From assembly GCF_900187275.1 (NCBI RefSeq), contig NZ_LT906458.1, positions 2,130,001-2,162,000 on the forward strand: a stretch of 32,000 nucleotides of DNA, given 5' to 3'. Below the pieces are notes generated by a model. The model did not search any database and was not told where the DNA came from. It saw only the letters and a program-made list of their open reading frames with translations. Within the stretch, counting starts at the first letter, position 1. Each line of letters starts with the position of its first letter. The translations under genes and the position numbers were made by a program. Below are positions 4,793 through 24,751 of the stretch, piece after piece. This DNA is from Pasteurella multocida (GTDB lineage Bacteria > Pseudomonadota > Gammaproteobacteria > Enterobacterales > Pasteurellaceae).

Positions 4793-5398
4793 ATGAGCCT
4801 ATTTGCGATTTTCTATCTGTTCCTGGCGTATTTATTAGGATCTGTTTCTAGTGCAATTTTATTGTGTCGTTTAGCGGGGTTGCCTGATCCAAGAGAAAGT
4901 GGTTCTCATAATCCCGGTGCAACCAATGTCTTGCGTATTGGTGGGCGTTGGGTGGCATTGAGTGTACTCCTGTTTGATATGCTCAAAGGTATGTTACCTG
5001 TTTGGTTAGGCTATTATCTTGGTTTGACTCATTTTGAATTAGGGATGGTGGCATTAGGTGCTTGTTTAGGGCACATTTTCCCAATCTTCTTTAAATTTAA
5101 AGGCGGAAAAGGGGTGGCAACGGCATTTGGTGCTATTGCGCCGATCTCATGGGGTGTCGCTGGCAGTATGCTGGGCACTTGGTTATTGATTTTCTTCGTG
5201 AGTGGTTATTCTTCGCTCAGTGCAGTGATGACCGCGCTTCTGGTACCTTTCTATGTGTGGTGGTTTAAGCCCGAGTTTACTTTCCCTGTCGCTTTAGTGT
5301 GTTGCTTGTTGATTTATCGCCATCATGACAATATTCAGCGTTTGTGGCGTGGGCAAGAAGACAAAGTGTGGAATAAACTGAAAAACAAAAAAGATTAA
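4793..5398 (+). CDS. plsY: Glycerol-3-phosphate acyltransferase PlsY
   Basis: Contains [13 protein letters not shown] and GGKGVAT motifs. I moved the start to ATG 4793 (MSLFAIF), preceded by AAAGGA; the upstream extension in the track is unlikely. Confidence 0.9.
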
Positions 5399-5412
5399 GT
5401 TAGCTAAGTAAC

Positions 5413-5438
5413 AAAAAAGGACCAGACGGTCCTTTTTT
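5413..5438. terminator. Bidirectional rho-independent terminator between convergent plsY and zipA
   Basis: aaaaaaggacc-agac-ggtcctttttt: a GC-containing stem flanked by an A6 run and a T6 run. Confidence 0.7.
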
Positions 5439-5453
5439 ATTGCGCGTTTTAGG

Positions 5454-6425
5454 TTATCTGACTTTATCAAGATAGGCTTTTTCCGCTTGGTCATCAAAAA
5501 TGGCTTGTTGATCAGTTAAGACAAAGCCGCCAAGATCTTCCGCAATACTTTTCGCTGCACGGATCATCATGCGTAAATTCATCAGATCATTGCCTTCTGA
5601 TGGCAACTGCATAAAGAGGGCGATCCCAACGGTACTAAAGTCATGCATATTGTAATCAAATGTCCCAGGTTGTTCGATGTTGGCAACACTAAATAAGACT
5701 GGGCTGTTGACACTTAAATCAGAATGGCGGTGATAAATATTATGTTCACCAAATAAGAAACCTAATTCATCTAAAATTTTAGCCAGTCTTGCGCCTTGGA
5801 ATTGATAATTTTCAGGTGCAACGACGTACATCATAATAAAAGTGGCATCCGTGTCTTGGCTTACATTTTCGCTTGCTTGTTGCTGAGCTTGACTTTCCAT
5901 TAAGGCTTGTTCTTCCTGTAATGCAGCTAATGTCACGGAAGGTGATTGTTGTGCGAGATCAGCCAATTGTTGGCGTAATTGTTCGGAGTGAGTATCGATC
6001 CCTTCTTCTTGATTTGCATAATTCTCAACCTCTGCAATGGTGGTTAACGCGGGAGAGGTTGGTGGGGTATCGGGTTCAATTTTAGCTTGATAAGGTTGCT
6101 CTTCTTTAGGCAAAGTAATTTTGATATTTTCAATCGCTTGTTCAACGGCTTGTTGTTCATGGGCGAATTGTTTTTCTGCTTCAAAAGCAAAGGTACGTTG
6201 TGCCGGAGAAACCTCGGCGGTAGGTGTACTGGTGTTCGCATCCTTTTTTTCTTCTGATGCTGATTGGATATGCGCCGGAGGTTCTCTTAGACGAGAATCT
6301 CGCGTAAAGGTATTCGCACTTTTAAAGTATTGTGACTTTTCGCGGCGATTGGCCCATAAGCCATGAACCACCAAAATAATTAATGCGATAATGCCTAAAA
6401 TAATTAAAATTGTATTCAAATCCAT
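5454..6425 (-). CDS. zipA: Cell division protein ZipA
   Basis: Has an N-terminal TM (MDLNTILIILGIIALIILVV), a charged/PQ-rich linker and a conserved C-terminal FtsZ-binding domain. I moved the start to ATG 6425, preceded by GAGGAA. Confidence 0.85.
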   Translation of the reverse strand: MDLNTILIILGIIALIILVVHGLWANRREKSQYFKSANTFTRDSRLREPPAHIQSASEEKKDANTSTPTAEVSPAQRTFAFEAEKQFAHEQQAVEQAIENIKITLPKEEQPYQAKIEPDTPPTSPALTTIAEVENYANQEEGIDTHSEQLRQQLADLAQQSPSVTLAALQEEQALMESQAQQQASENVSQDTDATFIMMYVVAPENYQFQGARLAKILDELGFLFGEHNIYHRHSDLSVNSPVLFSVANIEQPGTFDYNMHDFSTVGIALFMQLPSEGNDLMNLRMMIRAAKSIAEDLGGFVLTDQQAIFDDQAEKAYLDKVR

Positions 6426-6596
6426 TATCCATTCCTCATCATTATTAAAAGGATAAAACTCGCATAAGCTTATCATATTTTCTAGGGCTTGTTGATCATT
6501 TGTTATGACAATCCAAGGATGAAAAAAACAGCAAAAAATTGCTTTTTGAGTGCTCGCTTTGTATGCTAGCGCTTTGTTAATTTATCGGGAGAACTT

Positions 6597-7400
6597 ATGT
6601 TATCGCATGCTGAACTGAAGCAAGGCTTTCATTATTTTATGATGGGGTGGCATTTAATTACTCAGAAAGGGCTACGCCGTTTTGTGATTATGCCAATCCT
6701 ACTAAACATCGTGTTACTAAGCGGATTATTTTGGCTTTTTATTACACAAATTGAAAAAATGATTGGAATGCTCATGCTCTCGATTCCAGATTGGTTAAGT
6801 TGGTTGAGTAGCATTTTGCTGATATTTGCTATTTTGATGATTTTAGTCCTGTTTTATTTTGTCTTCACGACCTTGTCAGGCTTTATTGCTGCACCTTTTA
6901 ATGGTTTGTTAGCGGAGAAAGTCGAAAAAATGCTGACAGGTGAAAATCTGGTGGAGGGCAGTGTATGGGATTTTATGAAAGATATTCCACGGATGCTTGG
7001 GCAAGAATGGCAAAAGTTAGTGTATAGTTTACCAAAACTGATTATTTTATTTTTATTAGGTTTTGTGCCGGTTTTAGGGCAAAGCGTTATTCCGATTATT
7101 GTGACATTATTTACGGCATGGATGATGGCAATTCAATATTGTGATTATCCTTTTGATAACCATAAAGTGCCTTTTTTTGTGATGAAAGCAGAATTAGCAG
7201 AAAAGAGAGCACTTAGCTTAAGTTTCGGTGGTTTGGTAATGCTGTGTACTTTTATTCCTTTAGTGAATTTGGTGGTGATTCCTGTTGCTGTTTGTGGTGC
7301 GACGGCGATGTGGGTGACACATTTTCGCGAGCATTTAGCCATGAAACCGGTTAATCAGGAAGGCGTAAGTCGAGCGAGTACAGTCAGCATTGTAAAATAG
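6597..7400 (+). CDS. cysZ: Sulfate transporter CysZ
   Basis: Appears collinear with my recollection of E. coli CysZ ([38 protein letters not shown]). Confidence 0.9.
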
Positions 7401-7509
7401 TATTTTGTTATAAAATATAGCAAATGGCTATTTTTGTGGGGATTGGAATTATGGTAGAACTAAGCTATGGCTTAATTACTCAATGGATTGAACACAGAAG
7501 GAATACAAG

Positions 7510-8457
7510 ATGACCATTTACTCAGATAATTCTTATTCAATTGGTAATACACCACTTGTGCGCTTGAAACACTTTGGTCAAGGCAATATTGTGGTCAAAG
7601 TGGAAGGGCGTAATCCCAGTTTTAGTGTGAAGTGCCGTATTGGGGCGAATATGGTATGGCAAGCAGAAAAAGACGGCATTTTGACGAAAGAAAAAGAAAT
7701 TGTCGATGCTACCAGTGGGAATACTGGGATCGCCTTAGCCTATGTGGCAGCTGCACGCGGTTATAAAATCACTTTAACGATGCCAGAAACCATGAGTGCA
7801 GAACGTAAACGTTTATTACGTGGATTGGGCGTCAATTTAGTTTTAACGGAAGGTGCATTGGGCATGAAAGGGGCAATTGCCAAAGCAGAAGAAATTGTCG
7901 CGTCTGATCCACAACGCTATGTGATGTTAAAGCAGTTTGAAAATCCGGCTAATCCAGCCATTCACCAACAAACAACTGGACCGGAAATTTGGCGTGATAC
8001 GGATGGTCAAATTGATGTGCTGGTTGCCGGTGTTGGCACCGGCGGGACGATTACAGGGATTAGCCGTTATATTAAACAAGATAAAGGTAAAGCGATTCTC
8101 TCTGTGGCAGTTGAACCTGCGGAATCACCGGTGATTAGTCAAACTTTAGCCGGTGAAGAGATCAAGCCTGCCCCACATAAAATTCAAGGCATTGGCGCGG
8201 GCTTTATCCCTAAAAATTTAGACCTTGCATTAGTGGATCGTGTTGAAACCGTGAGTAGTGAGGAAGCCATGCAAACTGCACGTCGATTAATGGCAGAAGA
8301 AGGCATTTTAGGGGGGATTTCATCAGGAGCGGCGGTGGCTGCCGCAGATCGTTTGGCAAAATTACCTGAATTTGCCGAGAAATTAATCGTAGTTATTTTA
8401 CCGTCTGCGTCAGAACGCTATTTAAGTACGGCATTATTTGAAGGCATTGAGGCTTAA
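7510..8457 (+). CDS. cysK: Cysteine synthase A (O-acetylserine sulfhydrylase)
   Basis: Contains the [14 protein letters not shown]-lysine motif, SGNTGIALA and [10 protein letters not shown]. Confidence 0.93.
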
Positions 8458-8478
8458 TTCCTTCCCTTTATTACAAGC

Positions 8479-8517
8479 AAAGTGCGGTCAAAACGTATGA
8501 AATTTTGACCGCACTTT
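8479..8517. terminator. Inverted pair of uptake signal sequences forming a terminator hairpin (cysK / hemB convergent ends)
   Basis: aaagtgcggtcaaaa-(9 nt)-ttttgaccgcacttt followed by ttta. USS cores are at 8480-8488 (+) and 8508-8516 (-). Confidence 0.8.
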
Positions 8518-8532
8518 TTATTGCAAGAGACA

Positions 8533-10366
<1,834 letters not shown>

Positions 10367-10367
<1 letters not shown>

Positions 10368-10942
10368 TAGGCTTTCTTATCTTGTATTTCTTCTGTTTGA
10401 GGTTTTACTTTTGAGGCAAATACCGGCTCATCATCGTCATCGGGATAATATTGCTGGATATAAGCCATTTCATCGTTTTCTTCGGCAAGTTCTGCTTGTT
10501 CTGCAGGAGACAGGACATCATCGGTTGTTGCCTCCGTCACTTGTTCAGACGGGGTGAGTTGCTCCGTCAGTGTTTGTGATGTGCTCTCTGTTGCATTTTT
10601 TATCTCTTTGATCTGTTCTTCCAGTGTTGTATTGGTCGCTGCGGCTTTTTGTTCTAGCGCGGTACGCATTTTTTCAGCCGAGGCTTTCAATTCTTCAACC
10701 GTTTTACTGAGTTCAGGCGAGAGTTGTTGGAAATTGAGTTCTTCTGCTTTTTTTATGCTTTCTTGCAGCTCTTGTAATTTCAGTTCTTGTTTTAGTTCAT
10801 TTTGCACATTGGAGGCTAAACCACGAATTGTTGCAACCCAGCCCATGACGGTGCGAATTGCCACAGGCAAACGTTTCGGTCCGAGCACAAGCAGACCGAT
10901 GACTAAAATAAGAAATAACTCAGAAAACCCAATATCAAACAT
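10367..10942 (-). CDS. tatB: Twin-arginine translocase subunit TatB
   Basis: Begins [26 protein letters not shown] and has a long acidic/amphipathic tail. TAATG overlaps occur on both sides. Confidence 0.87.
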
Positions 10943-11172
10943 TATGCTTGTTCTTTGTCTTTTGCTTTTTCAGTTTTTGCTGTAGTTTCGCTGTCATCGT
11001 TTAATGACTTGAATTCGGCATCTTTTTCTTTGTTATCATCTGCCATGGCTTTTTTGAAACCTTTTACGGATTCGCCCAAGTCAGACCCTAATGTTCTCAA
11101 TTTTTTTGTACCAAATAATAAAACAACGATTGCTACAATAATAAGTAGTTGCGTAATACTAATGCCACCCAT
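10942..11172 (-). CDS. tatA: Twin-arginine translocase subunit TatA
   Basis: 76 aa beginning [33 protein letters not shown]. Confidence 0.88.
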
Positions 11173-11213
11173 ATTTTATCCTTCTTTAGTATGTTGAAAA
11201 ATGAATGTTGGTG

Positions 11214-11242
11214 AATATAGCTTTTTTACTGCGTTTGAACAA
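11214..11242 (-). promoter_or_regulatory. Candidate sigma70 promoter for tatABC (TTGTTC-17-TATATT)
   Basis: Minus-strand hexamers at 11242-11237 and 11219-11214 with a 17-nt spacer, about 40 nt upstream of the tatA ATG. This is pattern match only. Confidence 0.3.
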
Positions 11243-11280
11243 TAGCCAATTCACATTATTTTCTCTTCTTTTGCGTTTGA

Positions 11281-12864
11281 TCAGCTTAGTAAGTAAATTA
11301 AAAGCCAGATCACTAAGCCAGTGCATAACCCCAGAATAAAGGAGGTGAAGTGAGGAATGTTACGTTTTTTGGCTAAGGTGCGATTTAAATGGATTAACTC
11401 ATCAGCGATAATTTTTTGTTGCGCGAGGGCATCCATCACATTTTCTGGTAAATCAACCAAATGTTCACGCCAATATGGCAGTTTTTGTTTAACAGATTTA
11501 GTAAAGGCTTTTATGCCCATTTGCTCATCGAGCCATTTTTGTAAGAAGGGCTTCGCGGTATCCCATAAATCTAGTTGTGGATAAAGCTGTCTGCCTAACC
11601 CTTCAATGTAAAGTAACGTTTTTTGTAGTAACACCAATTGTGGCTGGACTTCCATATTGTATTCGCGTGCCACATTAAACAGGTTTAAGAGCACATGTCC
11701 AAAGGAAATCTCGGATAAGGGTTTAGCAAAAATTGGCTCACACACCTCACGAAAAGCTTGCTCAAAATCATCAATATTCGTGTCTTTGGGCGTCCAACCC
11801 GATGCAACATGCATTTCCGCAACACGGCGATAGTCGCGATTAAAAAACGCCACAAAACTTTCCGCTAAATAACGTTTATCATGATCATTGAGGCGTCCCA
11901 CAATACCACAATCGATCCCAATATATTGGGGATCGTCAGGATGTGCTCGATTGACAAAAATATTACCCGGGTGCATGTCGGCATGGAAAAAGCTATCACG
12001 AAAAACCTGAGTAAAAAATACCTGTACACCACGCTCCGCCAGTAATTTCATATTGGTGCCATTAGCATGGAGTTCTTCAATATTGGAAACCGGTATCCCA
12101 TAAATACGTTCCATGACGATGACGGTTTGATGACAAAATTGTTTATACATTTCGGGAATGTATAACATTGGGCTGTTTTCAAAATTGGCACGTAATTGAA
12201 TCGCATTCGCCATTTCACGGCGTAAGTCTAATTCATCGCGTAGGGTTTTTTCATATTCGCGCACGACTTCCACAGGGCGTAGTCTGCGTCCTTCTGCTTT
12301 TATGCGCGGGATCCAACTTGCTACTTTGTACATTAAACTTAAGTCAGCATTAATCATTTGTTGGATGTTAGGGCGTAAAACCTTTAATACCACTTCTTTT
12401 CCTGCCAAACGGCTTTCTAAGTGCGGTGCGTTTTGCTTAAATTTTGCCGTATGGACTTGTGCAATCGAAGCTGAAGCTAAGGCTGTTTCGTTAAATTCAT
12501 CAAACCATGTTTCGAGTGGCGCGCCTAGCGCTTTTTCAATTTGTGCTCTGGCGATCTTGCCATCAAAGGGATCGACTTGATCTTGTAACAACGCTAATTC
12601 ATCAGCAATGTCAGGGGGGAATAAATCACGACGCGTGGAAAGCATTTGTCCTAATTTGATCCAAACTGGTCCCAACTCTTGTAGCGCAAGGCGTAAACGC
12701 AAACCAAATGTTTTGTCCTTATGTTGATTTCGTAGCCAAAATAGGGTTTTTCGCCAGCAGCGGATTGCACGTGTATAGCGGTGCTGGGGTAGGGCCTCAT
12801 CAATCCCGTAAAGTAAGAAAGTTTTAATGATGTTATATAAGTGGGAAATATCTTTAATTTGCAT
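11281..12864 (-). CDS. ubiB: Ubiquinone biosynthesis regulatory protein kinase UbiB (ABC1/ADCK family)
   Basis: 527 aa with ASIAQVH, the [11 protein letters not shown] kinase-like motifs and a C-terminal TM pair. Confidence 0.92.
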
Positions 12865-12881
12865 GGGTTGTCCCTATTGGG

Positions 12882-13514
12882 CTATTTCTTTTTGAAAAGC
12901 ATTTCAATTTTTTGTTCTAAATGCGCGGTTTGGTGTTCTAAGTGTTTAACTTGATCACAAAAATCCGCGATAGCCAAACTTGGTGAAATAACTTGCCATT
13001 CTTCCGTTAAGCGCTCACCCCAAAATTGTTGGCTTTGGTTAAGTTTGTATTTTATCGAACGGGTTAATTTCGTCAGAAAATCTACTGCCGTTTGTGCAGG
13101 GACATCGCCAAGATAAGGAGAAAGCAATTCTGCGGGATCTTTCTCTAAAAATTCAATCAGGGCGACAAAATCTTGTAACACCTGTAAATCGCCTTGCAGG
13201 TAAATGGACTTATCATTAATAAATTGGCTTAACTGCGATTTCTTCGGCAAATGAAACAGTAAGCTTGGCGCAATATCCACAGCACAGTCAGTTTCACCTT
13301 CATATCGGCTGAGTAACTCAATCCGTTGTGAAGAAAAGAAAAAATAGATTGGTAAGTCTATTTTTTGTAATTTGACTGCTAAAACCTTGTTATTGAGCTT
13401 GCGTAAATAGGGCGCGCAATAAGCGGTCTGTTGAATCAATTTATTAAGCAGTGTTTCTACACCTGCGCATAGATATTGTGGCAACATCAGTTGCTGAAAA
13501 AAGGTGAATTGCAT
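12882..13514 (-). CDS. ubiJ: Ubiquinone biosynthesis accessory factor UbiJ (SCP2 domain, YigP-like)
   Basis: 210 aa. It lies between ubiE and ubiB as in the E. coli ubiE-ubiJ-ubiB unit, with an SCP2-like N-terminal region and a C-terminal coiled coil. Confidence 0.7.
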   Translation of the reverse strand: MQFTFFQQLMLPQYLCAGVETLLNKLIQQTAYCAPYLRKLNNKVLAVKLQKIDLPIYFFFSSQRIELLSRYEGETDCAVDIAPSLLFHLPKKSQLSQFINDKSIYLQGDLQVLQDFVALIEFLEKDPAELLSPYLGDVPAQTAVDFLTKLTRSIKYKLNQSQQFWGERLTEEWQVISPSLAIADFCDQVKHLEHQTAHLEQKIEMLFKKK

Positions 13515-16921: not shown

Positions 16922-18871
16922 TTATTTTTTATCCTCTGATTTATATAACCTATTTTTATATAAATAACTACCCAAGAGTGAATGTGCCAGTGCTTCTTTT
17001 TTTAGCGCTTCTGATAAATTCGCCTCTGTAAAACGATTGGTTTGTTTATCATAGAGATAACCTTTGGCTTCAACTTTGGGGGCAAGGATGACAACCTCGT
17101 TACCTTTCATCATGGCGAGAGTTTGATCATATTGCATAAAAGCACGATTTGGATTGTCTTCTTTGGTTAAGTCATAACCAATCATCGGATAATCGCCACT
17201 GATGCCAGCTAAAGACAGCAACGTTGTAGGCATATCAATTTGGCTGACGAGACGGGCATCACGTTTTATTTCTACATGATCGCCTAACAATAAAGCAGGG
17301 ATATGAAAGTGCTTAATCGGTACTAACGCAGCACCGCCGACACGAGAATCATGGTCAGCAATGACTAAAAACAGCGTATCTTTCCAGTAATCTGCTTGTT
17401 TAGCTAATTTAAAGAAATGACCAATCGCATAGTCTGCATATTTCGCCGCATTATTGCGGGTTTGTTTTGGTTGTTCATAAAGTTCAATTTTACCGTCAGG
17501 GAACTCAAACGGATCATGGTTACTTGAGCTAAACACTAAACTAAAGAACGGTTTACCTTCTTTATGTAAGGCGGTAAAAGTTTCATGGGCTTTATCAAAT
17601 AAGTCTTCATCACTCACTCCCCATGTCGCTTTGAATTTAGGATTGACGTAATCCAATTCATCAATAATGTATTGGAAGCCATTGCCATAGAAGAAGCTTG
17701 CCATATTATCGAAATGCTTTTCACCACCGTAAATAAACGAGGTATGGTAGCCTTGTTTAGCTAATAATTCGGCAATGGTAAAGAAACCATGTTGGCTGTT
17801 ACTGAGTTTGACGACGGCTCGTGCCGGTGTTGGAGTAAAGCCCGCGGTAACGGCTTCAATCCCACGTACAGAACGGGTTCCTGTCGCATACAGGTTCTCA
17901 AATAACCAGCCTTCTTGTGCTAATTTATCGAATTCTGGAGAAAGGGGTAATCCGCCTAAACTGCCAATAAATTGTGCGCCAAGACTTTCTTCTAAAATAA
18001 TCACAATATTTTTAGGTTTGCCTTGGTAAGTGGCTTGGTTTCTGGTTAAGGTTGGATATTGACTAGAAATATAGTCACTTTCTGGACGACCACGCGTTTG
18101 TTTTACAATACGTAGCATTTCATCATCTGCCATTTTGCCGTATAAAGAGGCAGCATTGTCTTCATCTTTAAATTGTTGTGCAGCATAAATAACAGAATAG
18201 CCTGAGTTGAGGACTAATGAATTGACTAAACCGTCGGAAGAGAAGGCAACCATCGCCGGATTAATACCGCGATGCGCAAAAGTTGATCGGGCACCGATAA
18301 AGGCAATAGCGATCACTAACAGAGCAACAACTGGACGGAATTTCCAACTCGGTGAAGATAAGTTTTTCACTGCCCATCCCGCTAATTTCCAATAACAGAG
18401 TGTTGCAGTGGCAGTGACAACTAAGCTAATTACCATGGAGAGCAAATGCCCCTCAAATAGCATAGTAAACACTTCTTTTGGATAAATGAGGTATTCAATG
18501 AAAAGGCGGTTTGGTCGGAAATCATAGGTCTCAATAAATGCAGGTGTGGCAATTTCCATGAACAAGATAAAGACACTGCCAAAGGTTAACCAAACACGTA
18601 ATATTTTTTGCCAAACGCGACCGAGCGCATTATGGTGATAAAGTAATACTGTGAATAAGGCAGGGACGCCAAATAAATAACACAGTGACACAATATCAAT
18701 GCGTAGCCCTTGCACAAATAGCTCGACCCAGCCATTGACTGCGCTCACACGCTCTGCTTGCCAGAGTGACAGCCCTAAACGCGAAAGCGTGAAAACGATG
18801 AGATTAACGAAGACAAAAAAGAAAATGGGGAACAGCAAAGTGCGGTGATTTTTTTCAGAATTTGAATACAT
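16922..18871 (-). CDS. LTA synthase family protein (multi-TM N-terminus plus extracytoplasmic alkaline-phosphatase/sulfatase-fold domain; phosphoglycerol/phospho-headgroup transferase-like)
   Basis: 649 aa with five N-terminal TM helices, then NIVIILEESLG...YATGTRSVRG...VIADHDS. It has a Thr nucleophile context and no C/S-x-P-x-R formylglycine motif. Confidence 0.8.
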   Translation of the reverse strand: MYSNSEKNHRTLLFPIFFFVFVNLIVFTLSRLGLSLWQAERVSAVNGWVELFVQGLRIDIVSLCYLFGVPALFTVLLYHHNALGRVWQKILRVWLTFGSVFILFMEIATPAFIETYDFRPNRLFIEYLIYPKEVFTMLFEGHLLSMVISLVVTATATLCYWKLAGWAVKNLSSPSWKFRPVVALLVIAIAFIGARSTFAHRGINPAMVAFSSDGLVNSLVLNSGYSVIYAAQQFKDEDNAASLYGKMADDEMLRIVKQTRGRPESDYISSQYPTLTRNQATYQGKPKNIVIILEESLGAQFIGSLGGLPLSPEFDKLAQEGWLFENLYATGTRSVRGIEAVTAGFTPTPARAVVKLSNSQHGFFTIAELLAKQGYHTSFIYGGEKHFDNMASFFYGNGFQYIIDELDYVNPKFKATWGVSDEDLFDKAHETFTALHKEGKPFFSLVFSSSNHDPFEFPDGKIELYEQPKQTRNNAAKYADYAIGHFFKLAKQADYWKDTLFLVIADHDSRVGGAALVPIKHFHIPALLLGDHVEIKRDARLVSQIDMPTTLLSLAGISGDYPMIGYDLTKEDNPNRAFMQYDQTLAMMKGNEVVILAPKVEAKGYLYDKQTNRFTEANLSEALKKEALAHSLLGSYLYKNRLYKSEDKK

Positions 18872-19054
18872 AACAGAACCTAACGAATTGGGATAAAAAC
18901 AAAGGAACAGATTGGATCTGCGCTTTGTAGGTATTCATGTATTATTAAACTTTTTTTTATGTTCTGCAATTTTATTCCATGTGCTTTCAGTGTGGTTTGC
19001 TGTAGATAAGCGCAAAATGGATAGACATCCGAGGAGATGAAATGTCGAAAAGAC

Positions 19055-19091
19055 AAGAAGATCAGGCTTTTTGGATCAGCATGATCTTCTT
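19055..19091 (-). terminator. Hairpin terminator after the sulfatase gene
   Basis: 10-bp stem aagaagatca / tgatcttctt with a 17-nt loop. It is followed on the minus strand by gtcttttcg. Confidence 0.5.
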
Positions 19092-19102
19092 TTATTATCG
19101 TG

Positions 19103-20464
19103 CTACGCGGCAGGAAGAATCGTTGGACGTTCTTCTTTTGCTTTTAGCATATGCTCACAGAGTTTTTCACGTAATTCAACACGTACTTGTTCGTAGGCAG
19201 GATCACGCACGAGGTTATTAAGCTCATAAGGGTCTTTCTCTAAATCATAGAGGAAGTCTTCTTGATATACATCACTGCCCGCGTGTACACCACCATGTTT
19301 ATTCGGTGCGAAAACACTATATAAGTATTTTTCTGTGCGGATACAGCGACCTACTCGGCTTTCGCTGATTTGTGCGAACACTTCATTTACTCGGTTTGGA
19401 ATGTTATTTTCTACCACGTCTTGTAGGTTTTCACCAATCATCGCATCACCCACATCAATGCCCGCCATGGCAAGGAAGGTTTTTGGCAAACTTGCGGTAC
19501 TGACTAAGTCTTTGACGCGTTTTCCGCCTTTAAATGCGCCGCCAGCAATGACCAGCGGGACATGCAACGCAGAAGAATGGCAAGAGCGTTTATAGTCATC
19601 ATAACCATTGAGGTTTTCATCAGTGTTGCGAGTCATAAAGTGCGAACCATGATCAGAGGCGAAGACAATAATGGTATTGTCATAGAGTCCTTTCTCTTTT
19701 AATTTCTCAATTAAACGCGCTAAGTTGTCATCTAAGCTACGGCAGCAGCCAAGGTAATCCGGATACATTTCTGCCGCATTACCTTTTAATTCTGCTAAAT
19801 CTTTTGGTAACTCAAAATCTTTGAAACGGATTTTTGAGCCATCCGGTCCTTCATAGCAATGACGATCGTTTTGGTGATGAGGTTCAATATGTGAGATGGT
19901 CATGAAAAACGGTTTATCGCCTTGATATTGATCGAGATATTCCAGCGCAAAGTCGGTAATACAATCAACGCGATAGCCTTTGAATTCACACTTGTTCATA
20001 TTCTCGTCAAAAACATAACCGTCATAGCCGTGAGAGGTGAATTCTAAGACATCTGAGGCTCGCCAAAAGCCTTTATATCCGCCACGACGTTCTGGTGGAA
20101 TCGCACTGGTGGTGTAATCAATCGTTGGCTCTTCTTCAAGTTCGCCATCACTAGCTAAATGCCATTTGCCAATATAGGCAGTGTCATAATCATTTTCATT
20201 AAAATAATCCGCGATGGTTTTAACCCCTTCTGGAAGAGCAATATTATTACGGAAACAGCCCGTTTCGGTTGGGTATAATCCCGTTTGGAAAATTGAACGA
20301 CAAGGACCACAAACCGGTTGTGAAGAGTAGGCTTCTTCAAACACCACACCATCCTCGGCTAATTTATCTAATGTTGGTGTAATATCAAGTGGTTGCCCAT
20401 AAGCACCCACGGTATCCCAACGCTGTTGGTCAGTGAAATAAAAAATAATATTAGGTCTAGTCAT
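19103..20464 (-). CDS. Cys-type (formylglycine-dependent) S1-family sulfatase with no signal peptide, predicted cytoplasmic
   Basis: Begins MTRPNIIFYFTDQQRWD and contains SSQPVCGPCRSIFQTGLYP (C-x-P-x-R...TG), GKWH and FASDHG. I moved the start to ATG 20464, preceded by GAGGAAG and 13 nt after the tctA stop; the track's N-terminal extension overlaps tctA. Confidence 0.88.
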   Translation of the reverse strand: MTRPNIIFYFTDQQRWDTVGAYGQPLDITPTLDKLAEDGVVFEEAYSSQPVCGPCRSIFQTGLYPTETGCFRNNIALPEGVKTIADYFNENDYDTAYIGKWHLASDGELEEEPTIDYTTSAIPPERRGGYKGFWRASDVLEFTSHGYDGYVFDENMNKCEFKGYRVDCITDFALEYLDQYQGDKPFFMTISHIEPHHQNDRHCYEGPDGSKIRFKDFELPKDLAELKGNAAEMYPDYLGCCRSLDDNLARLIEKLKEKGLYDNTIIVFASDHGSHFMTRNTDENLNGYDDYKRSCHSSALHVPLVIAGGAFKGGKRVKDLVSTASLPKTFLAMAGIDVGDAMIGENLQDVVENNIPNRVNEVFAQISESRVGRCIRTEKYLYSVFAPNKHGGVHAGSDVYQEDFLYDLEKDPYELNNLVRDPAYEQVRVELREKLCEHMLKAKEERPTILPAA

Positions 20465-20477
20465 AATGCTTCCTCGT

Positions 20478-21974
20478 TTAATAGCCCTTTTTCGCTTTTT
20501 TGTAATTATTGAACACAATGCTCATGATGGTTACTAAGATTAAGAGACAGAACGCCAGTGAGAACGGTCTTTCTAAAAAGAGGGTCCAGTCTCCGTCAGA
20601 AATGAGTAACGCACGCCGGAGATTTTTTTCAGTCAATGCGCCTAATACCAGACCAAGTAAGGTTGGTACTGCGGAGAACCCAAGCTTATCCATCAGATAA
20701 GCAATAATGCCAAAGACCAATGCAGCACCGACATCAAACATGGATTCTTTGAGAGAATAAGCGCCAGCAAAGCAGAAGACCGCAATGATAGGAATTAAAA
20801 TTTGTTGCGGGATTTTCACCACTTTGGCAAAGAATTTCAGTAAATATTTGCCTTGGATAAGCATGAAAATATTAACGAAAATCAGTCCAATCATAATCGC
20901 ATAGACCGCCGTGCCATGATTCTGGAATAAGTTTGGACCAGGTGTTAAGCCGTTAATCATGAGAGCGCCTAACATTAAAGCAACTGCGGCATCGCCCGGG
21001 ATACCTAAGGTTAATAAGGGAACAAGTGCGGTACCTGTGATCGCATTATTAGCGCATTCAGCGGCAGCAATTCCTTCGACAGAGCCTTTGCCAAACTCTT
21101 CGGGCTTTTTAGACACTTTTCTGGAAAAGTCATAGCTGAGGAAAGACGCGATAGAGGCGCCAGTTCCGGGAATGATACCGACTAAAATACCCGATAATGA
21201 ACCAATGGCAAGGGGTTTCGGTAAACGCAACCATTCACTTTTCGACACGGTGCCTTTATCGAGTTTAGGCGGTTCGACTTGCTTATTTCCATGGCTTTTT
21301 AGATCACGCCCTTTATTGATAATTTCGATTAAGGCAAATAACCCAATTAAGACCACAACCAGATCAAAACCACCATATAAATTAATGTTATCAAAGGCAA
21401 AACGCATTGTACTGCCGCTGATCAGATCCATACCAATGAAGGACAGGAATAAACCCAAACAGCCCGAGATAATCCCTTTTAATAAACTTTCTCCACTGAC
21501 ACCGGCAATAATGGTTAAGCCAAAGGCACAAATCAGAAAGTATTCCGGTGAACCCATTTTGAGGGCGACTTTGGCGACTTCTGGTGCCAAGAAGAGCAAT
21601 ACCAGCGCACTGACAATTCCTCCAACAAATGATGCGTACAGGGCAACGTTTAAGGCTTTTTGTGCCATACCTCGGTTCGCTAATGGATTACCATCTAACA
21701 TGGTGGCGGCAGCGTGTGGGGTGCCGGGGGTTTTGATGAGAATCGCAGAAATGGATCCCCCGTAGCTTCCCGCACAATAAATGCCCAATAAAAACATAAA
21801 AGAATGAATCGCATTTAAAGAATACGTAATGGGGAGAAAGAGGACTAAACAAAGCATGACAGTCAGTCCCGGAATCGAACCAAAGACGATACCTAAAAAT
21901 AGGCCTAGATTAATATAAAGAAAGCTTCCCCAAGTAAAGAACTCGTTAAACCCCGCAATGATTTGGTCAAACAT
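20478..21974 (-). CDS. tctA: Tripartite tricarboxylate transporter (TTT) large permease TctA
   Basis: About 498 aa polytopic membrane protein with typical TctA motifs (GxxPGxG repeats: GSIPGLT, GIIPGTG, GIPGD). I moved the start to ATG 21974, preceded by AGGAG. Confidence 0.88.
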   Translation of the reverse strand: MFDQIIAGFNEFFTWGSFLYINLGLFLGIVFGSIPGLTVMLCLVLFLPITYSLNAIHSFMFLLGIYCAGSYGGSISAILIKTPGTPHAAATMLDGNPLANRGMAQKALNVALYASFVGGIVSALVLLFLAPEVAKVALKMGSPEYFLICAFGLTIIAGVSGESLLKGIISGCLGLFLSFIGMDLISGSTMRFAFDNINLYGGFDLVVVLIGLFALIEIINKGRDLKSHGNKQVEPPKLDKGTVSKSEWLRLPKPLAIGSLSGILVGIIPGTGASIASFLSYDFSRKVSKKPEEFGKGSVEGIAAAECANNAITGTALVPLLTLGIPGDAAVALMLGALMINGLTPGPNLFQNHGTAVYAIMIGLIFVNIFMLIQGKYLLKFFAKVVKIPQQILIPIIAVFCFAGAYSLKESMFDVGAALVFGIIAYLMDKLGFSAVPTLLGLVLGALTEKNLRRALLISDGDWTLFLERPFSLAFCLLILVTIMSIVFNNYKKAKKGY

Positions 21975-21982
21975 AAACACTC

Positions 21983-22435
21983 CTACGGTAACGAAATATT
22001 AAGTAAATACTCGAAAATAAAAGAAACAGCCGTAATCACCGTGGCAACAATGGCGTAGTATTGCCAATTCCGGCAACGGAAGAACAGTAACATTAAGAAG
22101 GCAAAGATAATGGAGGAAACCATAAAAGGTAACCAATACAACATAAACCAATACAATACCAATAATAGAATAACAATCGAGGCGTTTAACTCCTCGCTTA
22201 AGGTTAAGGTCACCATCTTGCTTGGTTGTTTGCGAATAATTTTGATGATTTCTTTGACAAGCAAAATACAGCTACAAAGTGCCATCAGACCAATAATCAG
22301 GCGAGGAAAGGTTTGTGCAGTAATACCATCATCTTCATCAATGACAATTTGTAAAGGGACTAACAACCATAATGTGATGGATAAAATAAGGAAAACGGCA
22401 GCACCGACTAAATCTTGGCGAAAAGTTATTTTCAT
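21983..22435 (-). CDS. tctB: TTT small membrane subunit TctB
   Basis: 150 aa with four TM helices, positioned between tctC and tctA. ATG 22435 is preceded by GGAGA. Confidence 0.7.
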   Translation of the reverse strand: MKITFRQDLVGAAVFLILSITLWLLVPLQIVIDEDDGITAQTFPRLIIGLMALCSCILLVKEIIKIIRKQPSKMVTLTLSEELNASIVILLLVLYWFMLYWLPFMVSSIIFAFLMLLFFRCRNWQYYAIVATVITAVSFIFEYLLNISLP

Positions 22436-22499
22436 CACAATATCTCCAAAAAAATAACCAACATAGTGGGAGAGTCAACACTATGCTGGCTATTGTGGG

Positions 22500-23459
22500 T
22501 TATTTAACGAGTTTAGAATATTTAGCCGCTTTATCCATGGTGGAGTCAATATAGGCTTTGACTGCTGCGCCATCTTTGATATCTAAACGGATACCAATAT
22601 TTTTCGCGGTTTGTTGTAGTTTTGGATTTTCTAAGATGTTTTTAAGAGCTTGATAGTTTTTATCAATGATCGCTTGGTCTGTGCCGGCACGAATAAAGAC
22701 AGCACAAGTGTTGATCATCCAAGTATCATAGCCGTGATCGACAACACTGTCTAAGTTATACACGTCATCAACCAATTTTTTCTCATCAAAGGCCACGACC
22801 GCTTTTGCATTTCCTGCTTTGACGAATTCTTTTGCTAAAGAGGCGTGTGTTGTTGCAAAATCAACTTCCCCTGAAATGACAGCGGTTAAGGCTTCATTCG
22901 CACCGTCATAAGGAATGATTTGGTATTTTGCCCCCATTTCATTGAATAAAGCGGCAGATTGTAATGCTTCAGAGGAGTTTGTACCGTTGGTCGCAATTTT
23001 GATTTTTTTCCCTTTTGCAATGTACTCTTTTAAGCTTGGGATACTGTCTACTTTTGTTCTTGGATTGGTGACTAACACAAAAGTGGAAGAGTAAATGTTA
23101 ATGACTGGTACGAAATCTTCAAATTTGTATGCCACTTTCATTGTTAAAGGTGCAATAGCAAAGCTCCCTTCACCCCCTAAAATTAATTTGTGTGTGTTTG
23201 GTTTTTCTTTTGTATATTCTGTTAATGCGACTGCACCACCTGAGCCCAGAATATTATCTGCCAGTAATGGTTGACCATATTGCTCTTTTCCATATTCCGA
23301 CATCGCACGGTTAATTTGGTCTGCAAGTCCGCCTACCGCCCAAGGCGTAATAATTGTGACGGGGGCTGTTGGCCAATTTGTTTGCGCCATAGAATTGATT
23401 GAAACGAGACCTAATAAACCAATTAAGCTCGCTTTAATTGCGGATTTCCACGTTTTCAT
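22500..23459 (-). CDS. tctC: TTT periplasmic substrate-binding protein TctC (Bug family)
   Basis: I moved the start to ATG 23459 (MKTWKSAIKASLIGLLGLVSINSMAQ, a signal peptide), preceded by AAGGAG. The mature N-terminus reads PVTIITPWAVGGLAD, typical of Bug/TctC. Confidence 0.85.
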   Translation of the reverse strand: MKTWKSAIKASLIGLLGLVSINSMAQTNWPTAPVTIITPWAVGGLADQINRAMSEYGKEQYGQPLLADNILGSGGAVALTEYTKEKPNTHKLILGGEGSFAIAPLTMKVAYKFEDFVPVINIYSSTFVLVTNPRTKVDSIPSLKEYIAKGKKIKIATNGTNSSEALQSAALFNEMGAKYQIIPYDGANEALTAVISGEVDFATTHASLAKEFVKAGNAKAVVAFDEKKLVDDVYNLDSVVDHGYDTWMINTCAVFIRAGTDQAIIDKNYQALKNILENPKLQQTAKNIGIRLDIKDGAAVKAYIDSTMDKAAKYSKLVK

Positions 23460-23588
23460 TTCACTTCTCCTTATATTATGAGCGGTTAAATAAGAGGGTA
23501 TTTTTGAAAAGTTGTAAATAGCATATAAAAGAAACACCAAAATGAGTATGATTATTGTCATATCTGTAGGGTGAACTGGATCACAAAA

Positions 23589-24680
23589 TCATAACAATCT
23601 TTGTTTTTTTGTTAAAAAAATGGCTAATTTCTTCAAGTAAGGCGACATATGGCTTAATGCACTGTAGTAAGACTCACATAAAATATTATGTGCTTCACCG
23701 AAACCTTGTACTGTGCGATGCTTAGGACAGCCTCCATGACAAGCAAAGTAGAATTGACATTGCTGACATTTATGGGACACCTTTTGTTTATCTGCGCCGA
23801 ATTTTTGTTGTTGTGCGGAATAAACAATTTGTTTGAGTGGGGTTTCAATTAAATTACCGATTTTATAGTGAGGATACACATAGTGATCGCAACTAAAAAT
23901 ATCGCCGTTTTGTTCGACGATCATTTGATCACCACAGGTTTTACGGAAAATACATAAACTCGGTTGCATGCCTAAAAACGCCATGAGCCACTGCTCAATA
24001 AACTGCACCCCAATCTTACCAATATCATGCGCATACCATTCGTCAAAAATCTCAATCATAAATTGACCGTATTCTTTCGCCCCCGCTTGCTGTTCCCATT
24101 CACCCATTAAAGGGATGAACTGCATATACGTCGAGCCAATTTGTTTTAGAAATTGGTAAACTGCTTTACCATGTAACACATTTTGTTTATGGACAACAGT
24201 GAGGGTATTGAAAGACACGTTGAAGGCAATCAGATTTTCCAGTGCATGCATGACCTGATGAAAGGTGCCTTTTTGACTTTTAGTTACGCGGTACACATCA
24301 TGCAAATGTTCGGGACCATCAATAGATAAGCCCACTAAAAACTGGTTTTGTTGCAGAAATTGACACCATTGTTTATCTAAGAGGACACCATTAGTTTGTA
24401 GGGCATTATAGATTGTTTTACCGTTAGCATATTTTTGTTGGAATTCAACGGCTTTTTGGTAAAACGCAATGCCCGCAAGTGTTGGCTCACCACCTTGCCA
24501 GAGAAAAGTGACCTCTTTTTGTGGGGCAAGTTGTAAATATTTTTTGACATACGCTTCAAGCATGTCATCACTCATCGCGCGTTGCTGTAGATGTGGTTTT
24601 TCGAGATAGAAACAATATTTACAATCTAAATTACACAATGAGCCTGTTGGCTTTGCCATTAATTGAAAAGGAGTTTGCAT
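23589..24680 (-). CDS. Anaerobic sulfatase-maturating enzyme (radical SAM / SPASM, AslB/AtsB/ChuR family)
   Basis: Contains the CNLDCKYCFY radical-SAM cluster, GGEPTL and the C-terminal SPASM motif CQQCQFYFACHGGC (Cx2Cx5Cx3C). I moved the start to ATG 24680 (MQTPFQLMAKP), preceded by GAGGTGG. Confidence 0.88.
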   Translation of the reverse strand: MQTPFQLMAKPTGSLCNLDCKYCFYLEKPHLQQRAMSDDMLEAYVKKYLQLAPQKEVTFLWQGGEPTLAGIAFYQKAVEFQQKYANGKTIYNALQTNGVLLDKQWCQFLQQNQFLVGLSIDGPEHLHDVYRVTKSQKGTFHQVMHALENLIAFNVSFNTLTVVHKQNVLHGKAVYQFLKQIGSTYMQFIPLMGEWEQQAGAKEYGQFMIEIFDEWYAHDIGKIGVQFIEQWLMAFLGMQPSLCIFRKTCGDQMIVEQNGDIFSCDHYVYPHYKIGNLIETPLKQIVYSAQQQKFGADKQKVSHKCQQCQFYFACHGGCPKHRTVQGFGEAHNILCESYYSALSHMSPYLKKLAIFLTKKQRLL

Positions 24681-24708
24681 TACCACCTCAATCCGAGAAA
24701 ATGAATTT

Positions 24709-24751
24709 ATCATACAAAGAGAACGGACATTTTAATATGATAGTGATCATA
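24709..24751 (-). promoter_or_regulatory. Candidate class-II activator-dependent promoter: FNR/CRP-family dyad TATGATcactATCATA centred at -41.5 plus a TATGAT -10
   Basis: The dyad is at 24736-24751. Exactly 21 nt separate it from the minus-strand hexamer TATGAT at 24714-24709. The predicted TSS is near 24702, 22 nt before the anSME ATG. No good -35 is present, as expected for class-II promoters. Confidence 0.45.

Follow-up and report, generated by a model that had tools for sequence, protein, structure and literature searches.

The 32-kb window analyzed here (32,000 nucleotides of Pasteurella multocida contig NZ_LT906458.1, positions 2,130,001 to 2,162,000) carries on its minus strand five closely packed genes encoding, in order of transcription, an anaerobic sulfatase-maturating enzyme (anSME), the components TctC, TctB, and TctA of a tripartite tricarboxylate transporter (TTT), and a sulfatase of the Cys type that has no leader peptide. 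We consider it probable that this locus is a sulfated-sugar scavenging cassette, in which a sulfate ester is imported and then desulfated in the cytoplasm by the anSME-dependent enzyme. Periplasmic TctC would bind a sulfated monosaccharide that other enzymes or organisms have set free from host mucin, keratan sulfate, or glycosaminoglycan; foremost among the candidate ligands are 6-O-sulfated N-acetylglucosamine (GlcNAc), N-acetylgalactosamine (GalNAc), or galactose (Gal), followed by other galactose sulfates. TctBA, working in the inward direction, would carry the sulfated sugar over the inner membrane, and the sulfatase, whose Cys52 would beforehand be converted to formylglycine by the co-encoded O2-independent radical-SAM maturase, would strip off the sulfate. 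The free sugar would then enter central sugar catabolism, leaving sulfate as a by-product that many relatives apparently export through a TauE/DUF81 permease. In the Pasteurellaceae, a CRP site at the tctC promoter would place expression under catabolite control, a regulator protein would bind the palindrome TATGAY-N4-RTCATA at both the anSME and tctC promoters, and a hairpin after tctC would probably lift the ratio of binding protein to membrane subunits. More tentatively, and with somewhat less than even confidence, we propose that this TctC clade is the first TTT binding lineage for carboxylate-free sugar sulfate esters, with the sulfate seated in the anion clamp, and that TctCBA-sulfatase(-anSME) is a mobile cassette that crosses phyla.

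The coupling of a TTT importer to a leaderless Cys-type sulfatase and an anSME, which the initial annotation had proposed, is borne out by the gene neighborhoods of other genomes. We collected 80 loci (one genome per species) whose sulfatase is at least 69% identical to that of P. multocida; their hosts are Pasteurellaceae and Clostridia of the gut, the latter with Oscillospiraceae, Lachnospiraceae, Hungatella, and Clostridium among them. Linkage was counted by tblastn with the proteins of the window in the 73 species-level loci that had enough upstream sequence; greedy open reading frame (ORF) calls in the GC-rich Firmicute loci had produced antisense artefacts (clusters 6 and 7) and were dropped in favor of these counts. 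In 62 of the 73 loci, the gene immediately upstream of the orthologous sulfatase, in the same orientation, is tctA (tctC and tctB are also visible in 57 of these 62, and anSME is carried in 44). This association far exceeds chance.

Between the Pasteurellaceae and the Firmicutes, the sulfatase is 72–77% identical, TctA up to 70%, and TctC up to 66% (Vallitalea, L023), and because of these values we take the sequences to indicate that the entire block was transferred between phyla. Within the Pasteurellaceae, the block occupies different chromosomal sites in different genera. TctA is also 57–70% identical to the sulfatase-adjacent TctA of Clostridia, Fusobacterium, and Psychromonas. When sampling started from TctC instead, six of seven lineages of its clade were found to adjoin a leaderless sulfatase, drawn from three sulfatase lineages: a leaderless CxPxR sulfatase stands beside TctC in the Pasteurellaceae, Vallitalea, Fusobacterium, Cetobacterium, Psychromonas, and a metagenome locus (L094). 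The TctC members that are about 50% identical to that of P. multocida (Fusobacterium, Cetobacterium, Psychromonas, and the metagenome contig) have partner sulfatases only 20% and 40% identical to the P. multocida enzyme. Since the sulfatases beside this TctC clade are only 20–40% identical among themselves, the constant partner is the transporter clade and not one given sulfatase.

That the ligand is a sulfated sugar is suggested by the genes that accompany the cassette. A GntR-type helix-turn-helix (HTH) domain fused to a sugar-binding periplasmic-binding-protein domain is encoded in 42 loci and a LacI regulator in five, and the remaining regulators are NagC-like ROK proteins (Fusobacterium and Cetobacterium), AraC (Psychromonas), and DeoR ([Haemophilus] felis). 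Eleven ortholog loci are without TTT genes. In one of them (L035), the sulfatase-GntR-anSME cassette is kept and a CUT1 sugar ATP-binding cassette (ABC) transporter replaces TctCBA, and at four loci the partners of the sulfatase are an ABC transporter, AraC, and a GH112 lacto-N-biose/galacto-N-biose phosphorylase (PF09508, 1e-207). The sulfatase at these CUT1/GH112 loci is still about 70% identical to that of P. multocida; the loci represent a transporter swap around one enzyme and tie this enzyme to the chemistry of galactose-N-acetylhexosamine (Gal-HexNAc) units. None of the ortholog loci encodes enzymes of extracellular degradation or a pathway that would handle an uncommon carbon skeleton, and for this reason desulfation probably yields a common sugar. 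The candidates are ranked with 6-O-sulfated GlcNAc, GalNAc, or Gal at the head, then other galactose sulfates, and then sulfated uronates.

The sulfatase itself has carbohydrate sulfatases as its structural neighbors, at 20–26% identity. Its AlphaFold2 model (mean predicted local distance difference test, pLDDT, 84.9) matches S1 sulfatases at template modeling (TM) scores of 0.75–0.80, and the closest solved enzymes include GlcNAc-6-sulfatases (5g2v and 7p24), L-Gal-6- and Gal-6-sulfatases (7lha and 7snj), and chondroitin 4-O-sulfatases. In sequence, the uronate 2-O-sulfatase 5g2t matches far less well than the hexose 6-O-sulfatases, and it falls outside the top 50 structural neighbors. The Fusobacterium partner sulfatase, which is unrelated to that of P. 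multocida, also has the GlcNAc-6-sulfatase 5g2v as its best match. The PF00884 domain spans residues 4–336, and the catalytic and metal-binding residues D12, Q13, K100, H102, H196, D271, H272, and K292 are invariant in 25 orthologs. The absence of a signal peptide, already remarked on in the initial annotation together with the CxPxR motif, is plain from the N-terminus MTRPNIIFYFTDQQ, which opens directly on the first core beta-strand (E5-11 in the model) and leaves no room for one.

For TctC, the structure prediction that had been suggested as a check returned the TTT binding-protein fold (pLDDT 91.6, TM 0.81–0.88 to TphC/TBP, N-terminal helix H2-23), with matches to TphC, Bug27, and BugD as well. 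With pocket positions assigned after PMC5812351, the proximal anion clamp is intact (P39, G43/G44, D47, and G159). The first pincer motif reads P-W-A-V-G-G-L-A-D, which is the family motif P-F-x-A-G-G-x-x-D with Trp40 in place of Phe, while the second loop is N-G-T-N-S-S-E as against the family's G-x-G-[AS]-x-S-H type, with a conserved Glu164 replacing Ser. Besides W40, which takes the place of the substrate-docking Phe, the conserved signature comprises N88, E97, N121, Y123, S125, F127, E164, E189, H205, S207, E211, F224, D225, and N250. It is common to the Pasteurellaceae/Fusobacterium/Psychromonas clade and to the Oscillospiraceae/Lachnospiraceae type, which are about 30% identical to each other, and in the alignment it is not present in BugD, MatC, or TphC. 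The Firmicute type retains the signature in a remodeled clamp (D47 replaced by A; G72, G74, and G75 lost). The Trp together with Asn, Asp, Glu, and His residues may be read as resembling a sugar site. A different TctC lineage, lacking the signature residues, is found in Hungatella and Clostridium spp. (L019 and L027-L029), where TctCBA is preceded by a second sulfatase (493 aa, choline-sulfatase/S1_30-like) and followed by LacI and then by the orthologous sulfatase.

In the P. multocida window, the five minus-strand ORFs were found at or very near the positions at which they had first been placed (Table 1), and their tight packing, with 13 nt between the tctA stop and the sulfatase ATG, was confirmed; a GAGGAAG ribosome-binding site lies inside this junction. 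The sulfatase is 100% identical to a P. multocida protein at NCBI. The anSME scores 467.7 bits against the TIGR03942 equivalog hidden Markov model, above the curated cutoff of 349.45, its CNLDCKYC is the CX3CX2C radical-SAM cluster motif, and the Radical_SAM and SPASM domains are matched at 2.7e-16 and 7.9e-10; the ATG at 24680 is preceded by a GAGGTGG ribosome-binding site, in agreement with the start first assigned. The true start of tctC is at 23459, as judged from an AAGGAG site, the signal peptide, and the 319-aa orthologs (319–325 aa overall), and not at the ORF start, 23561; the corrected start leaves a gap of 129 nt after anSME. TctA, TctB, and a secreted TctC occur together, by Pfam matches, signal peptide, and fold.

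Transcription of the locus as one five-gene operon from a single promoter, as had been assumed, proved too simple a picture. By phylogenetic footprinting across the Pasteurellaceae, we found two promoter regions, one upstream of anSME and the other upstream of tctC, which appear to share one operator, the 16-bp palindrome TATGAY-N4-RTCATA. The pattern TATGAYNNNNRTCATA has exactly two exact matches in the window, one in each promoter region. Of the eight other Pasteurellaceae loci that carry anSME, six have its core, ATGAY-N4-RTCAT, upstream of that gene, and L011 has a near-match. The palindrome stands upstream of tctC in every Pasteurellaceae locus examined (the element occurs also in L005, L007-L018, and L022), and 1 Mb of Firmicute loci proved essentially devoid of it. 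The tctC promoter has in addition a CRP-type site of its own, GTGA-N6-TCAC, kept in 14 further Pasteurellaceae loci (with TCAT in three); the operator always follows it downstream at a fixed distance of 23 bp from center to center, and a conserved -10-like TATnCT comes after the palindrome.

The TGA-N6-TCA geometry of the palindrome resembles that of CRP/FNR-family sites, with flanks unlike either the CRP or the FNR consensus. An FNR box (TTGAT-N4-ATCAA) was rejected, as the outer positions are A...T in all of the more than 20 instances, and a Fur box was rejected on spacing. A candidate for the protein that would bind it, perhaps as a repressor, is a 183-aa member of the CRP/FNR family with a cyclic-nucleotide-binding domain and a weak Crp-type HTH, encoded directly downstream of the sulfatase in Lonepinella, Mannheimia indoligenes, and isolate 22721 (L009 11713-12264, L012 8258-8809, and L022 11430-11999). 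In the same three loci, a TauE permease gene diverges from anSME. Neither gene is found in the P. multocida window.

A terminator-like hairpin followed by a T-run separates tctC from tctB. It recurs in eight of the 11 Pasteurellaceae loci examined, the window included, with unrelated stem sequences (equivalents in L007-L009, L011-L013, and L022; none in Gallibacterium and Spirabiliibacterium), and because of this recurrence with unrelated stems it appears to be under selection, which suggests a partial terminator or an mRNA stabilizer that raises TctC over the membrane subunits. In Canicola haemoglobinophilus (L010, about 7790-8030), the tctC-tctB spacer holds an insertion of some 250 nt that folds into a very long and near-perfect hairpin (-90 kcal/mol) and may be an element of the miniature inverted-repeat transposable (MITE) or repetitive extragenic palindromic (REP) type. 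The hairpin terminator that had been noted downstream of the sulfatase is real, since none of 200 shuffles was equally stable. A consensus scan for promoters and terminators gave no excess over shuffled sequence and missed both hairpins, whose loops are longer than 8 nt; it was replaced by RNA folding and by the footprinting.

Table 1. Genes and putative control elements of the TTT-sulfatase locus (positions in the window)
Feature	Position	Strand	Evidence or context
anSME, radical SAM/SPASM, 363 aa	23589..24680	-	TIGR03942 equivalog, Radical_SAM and SPASM Pfam matches, CNLDCKYC motif
tctC, periplasmic solute-binding protein, 319 aa	22500..23459	-	PF03401 6.3e-27; signal peptide MKTWKSAIKASLIGLLGLVSINSMA/Q
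tctB, small membrane subunit	21983..22438	-	PF07331 5.9e-18
tctA, large membrane subunit	20478..21980	-	PF01970 1.6e-150
Leaderless Cys-type S1 sulfatase, 453 aa, C52-G-P-C-R56	19103..20464	-	PF00884 1.5e-49
Putative palindromic operator TATGATCACTATCATA	24736..24751	-	Upstream of anSME, overlaps likely promoter core
Putative palindromic operator, copy 2 TATGACAATAATCATA	23547..23562	-	Between CRP site and tctC; exact pattern match
CRP-type site TGTGATCCAGTTCACC	23570..23585	-	anSME-tctC gap
Terminator-like hairpin and T-run, tctC-tctB	22447..22494	-	-22.7 kcal/mol, z = -5.2, then UUAUUUUUUU
Hairpin terminator after sulfatase	19047..19091	-	-19.2 kcal/mol, z = -3.4, then GUCUUUUCG

Several points weigh against the scavenging of a sulfated sugar. 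At only 20–29% identity to any characterized or solved sulfatase, the enzyme is too distant from them for placement in an S1 subfamily of known substrate, for assignment of the sugar and its sulfated position, or for a transfer of regiospecificity. Neither a regulator nor a TauE gene belongs to the P. multocida locus itself. The species also has a separate locus made up of a yidK symporter, a sulfatase, an anSME-like chuR, and a yeaD hexose-6-phosphate mutarotase, carried by about 87% of subsp. multocida/gallicida strains but not by subsp. septica; this locus may already cover hexose-6-sulfates (PMC10986470); the two systems probably take different esters. Every characterized TTT ligand is a carboxylate (PMC5812351), among them the sugar diacids galactarate and glucarate, and the proximal clamp of TctC, with the motif P-W-A-V-G-G-L-A-D and G159, is retained. 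A clade member with identical signature residues (L095) has no sulfatase nearby and lies in an operon (4967-13197) with genes for an enolase-superfamily dehydratase, a short-chain dehydrogenase/reductase (SDR), a DUF202 protein, an AraD1/GguC-family protein, and an aldehyde dehydrogenase, with a lactonase upstream, which looks like an oxidative pathway of the sugar-acid or uronate type. A ManD mannonate dehydratase and an oxidoreductase adjoin the L094 cassette, and the Vallitalea cassette adjoins a second TTT system with DgoK and an aldolase of the 2-keto-3-deoxy-6-phosphogluconate (KDPG) type. Because of these three gene contexts, the TctC clade may have arisen from sugar-acid or uronate binders; uronates and hexose-6-sulfates are alike in being pyranoses that bear an exocyclic anion at C5. 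In Vallitalea longa (L091 4876-14427), the two TTT systems are in tandem, the first followed by the KDPG-type aldolase and the DgoK-family kinase; after the second come the orthologous sulfatase and an arabinofuranosidase-like protein of 965 aa.

The clamp and these neighborhoods speak for a sulfated carboxylate (a 2- or 3-sulfate of glucuronic or iduronic acid, a sulfated sugar acid, or sulfated sialic acid), which would be held by its carboxylate in the TTT clamp and desulfated in the cytoplasm. We nevertheless regard such a ligand as unlikely. Genes of uronate or sialate catabolism (GH88, KduI/D, UxaC, and NanA) were not seen among the clustered neighbors of the more than 80 sulfatase-linked loci, the orthologous sulfatase has been swapped into GH112/CUT1 loci that handle neutral Gal-HexNAc disaccharides, the uronate 2-O-sulfatase is a poor match in both sequence and structure, and the Firmicute-type TctC keeps the sugar-like signature although its clamp is remodeled. 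Bacterial glycosaminoglycan degradation, moreover, is not known to yield sulfated uronates as free monosaccharides. Of the interpretation first given to this locus, import followed by cytoplasmic desulfation is still the best reading, whereas the carboxylate considered obligatory on the ligand finds no support in the sugar-type regulators, the CUT1/GH112 swaps, and the hexose 6-O- and 4-O-sulfatase relatives.

The question of carbon or sulfur, left undecided in the initial annotation, now leans toward carbon. The alternative is that whatever small sulfate ester is available is imported as a source of sulfate, from which cysteine would be made when sulfate is limiting. The ats arylsulfatase systems of Pseudomonas and enterobacteria serve sulfur scavenging in this way, an enzyme that would break down the carbon skeleton is missing from the P. 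multocida locus, and cysZ (sulfate transporter family) and cysK (a cysteine synthase-type pyridoxal phosphate enzyme) lie 12 kb from the cluster in the same window (6597-8457, plus strand), where no evidence of a functional link to the cluster was found. Against this stand the CRP-type site, conserved at the tctC promoter in 15 Pasteurellaceae loci, regulators that are of the sugar type and not of the CysB/Cbl type, the linkage to GH112 and sugar ABC systems, and the sulfur-replete habitat of the cassette-bearing gut Clostridia. The cassette is joined by a TauE/DUF81 permease in 16 Firmicute loci and in three genera of the Pasteurellaceae, which fits export, and not retention, of the released sulfur oxyanion. 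Because of the CRP-type site and these frequent exporters, carbon use is favored, and sulfur scavenging seems quite improbable as the purpose of the cassette. Even less probable, in our estimate, is a non-carbohydrate ester from host or diet, such as the tyrosine-O-sulfate, ascorbate-2-sulfate, and bile or phenolic sulfates suggested earlier, or indoxyl sulfate: S1 sulfatases of carbohydrate-like fold can hydrolyze aryl sulfates, such conjugates occur in gut and oral habitats, and some of them bear a carboxylate suited to a TTT, but there is no contextual gene for aromatic, amino-acid, or steroid metabolism, and the regulators, CUT1 alternatives, GH112, and structural neighbors all indicate carbohydrates.

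The remaining genes of the window are housekeeping genes, none of which encodes a regulator. Downstream of the cluster (16922-18871, minus strand) is the gene for a membrane protein of 649 aa that matches the Pfam Sulfatase domain but is an LtaS/OpgB-type phosphoglycerol transferase. It was rejected as a member of the system on the grounds of its type and its limited synteny with the cassette, which is confined to P. multocida, Bisgaard Taxon 45, and P. canis (Pasteurella sensu stricto). A cytosine-deaminase-like amidohydrolase gene lies directly upstream of the cassette in Spirabiliibacterium (L016-L018, about 5580-6840) and adjoins the sulfatase and a creatininase in one Clostridium (L020 8446-9714); it was set aside as a part of the module, being probably a coincidental codBA-type neighbor.

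Should the scavenging of sulfated sugars be confirmed, mucosal Pasteurellaceae, Fusobacteria, and gut Clostridia would feed on sulfated sugars that others free from mucin, keratan sulfate, or algal galactans, a new route of host-glycan cross-feeding, and the large and poorly characterized TTT family would gain its first sulfate ester and possibly its first carboxylate-free sugar, which would take its substrate range beyond carboxylates. Import of sulfated sugars with cytoplasmic desulfation would then not be limited to bifidobacteria, but would be the work of a cassette that is widespread and horizontally exchanged, being carried by Pasteurellaceae of the mouth and airways, by Fusobacteria, and by dozens of Oscillospiraceae and Lachnospiraceae of the gut. 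For P. multocida, it would be a testable nutrient-acquisition trait on mucosal surfaces, and since the system has only five genes, expression of its components should be straightforward.

Among known systems, the characterized TTTs (TctCBA for citrate, BugD/E, AdpC, MatC, TphC, SlcHFG for sulfolactate, and the Halomonas galactarate/glucarate transporter) have the same three-component architecture, and their binding proteins share with P. multocida TctC the fold (TM 0.81–0.88), the first pincer motif, and G159. None of them is linked to a sulfatase or a sulfate ester, and the TctC clade differs from the solved carboxylate binders in having Trp for the docking Phe, Glu for the second-pincer Ser, and extra conserved Asn, Glu, Asp, His, and Tyr residues. 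In line with the earlier statement that no characterized TTT-sulfatase system is known, the searchable literature yielded no paper on one, only incidental co-mentions and matches to primer sequences, and TTTs go unmentioned in a 2026 review of glycoside transporters. On the side of the enzyme, the Bacteroides S1_11 6-O-sulfatases (BT4656, BT3177, and BuS1_11) are among the best sequence and structure matches and have the S1 fold, the Cys-type motif, and anSME dependence in common with it; they are, however, exported to the periplasm and encoded in polysaccharide utilization loci, and at only 21–22% identity neither subfamily nor regiospecificity is transferable.

The uncharacterized yidL-yidK-yidJ locus of Escherichia coli (AraC regulator, SSS symporter, and leaderless sulfatase) resembles that of P. 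multocida in the translational coupling of a leaderless CxPxR sulfatase to a secondary transporter. It differs in the transporter family and in the sulfatase, which is only 29% identical (E = 2e-44, full length), a level that would place it and YidJ in the same superfamily but in different subfamilies. Small DUF202 membrane proteins recur beside leaderless sulfatases and this TTT clade (L089 6552-7234, L094 4516-5209, and L095 10007-10372), and the DUF202 genes yidG and yidH of E. coli (L092 3609-4308) likewise lie near yidJ, as in the Psychromonas-type TTT-sulfatase loci.

The closest functional parallel is the ats2 locus of Bifidobacterium breve UCC2003 (atsR2-atsT-atsA2-atsB2 and a DUF81 gene), which through a transporter, the intracellular sulfatase AtsA2, the maturase AtsB2, a NagC-type regulator, and DUF81 supports growth on GlcNAc-6-sulfate that other microbes must free (PMC7326374, PMC5144078); a sulfoglycosidase of Bifidobacterium bifidum frees this sugar from mucin (PMC11186840). 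Like the P. multocida locus, ats2 joins a dedicated importer, an intracellular sulfatase, and an anSME in one place, and like many relatives of that locus, it has a sugar-type regulator and a DUF81/TauE permease. Both are without extracellular degradative enzymes, and the sugar used by ats2 comes by cross-feeding. The regulator and DUF81 genes of ats2 and the nagA, nagB, and ROK-kinase genes adjacent to it have no counterpart in the P. multocida locus, and the importers differ, that of ats2 (Bbr_0851) being a single-component permease annotated as "glucose/fructose transport protein" (PMC5144078) and that of P. multocida a tripartite TTT. The overall strategy is therefore one already characterized in B. 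breve, to which no paper in the searchable literature had tied the TTT family.

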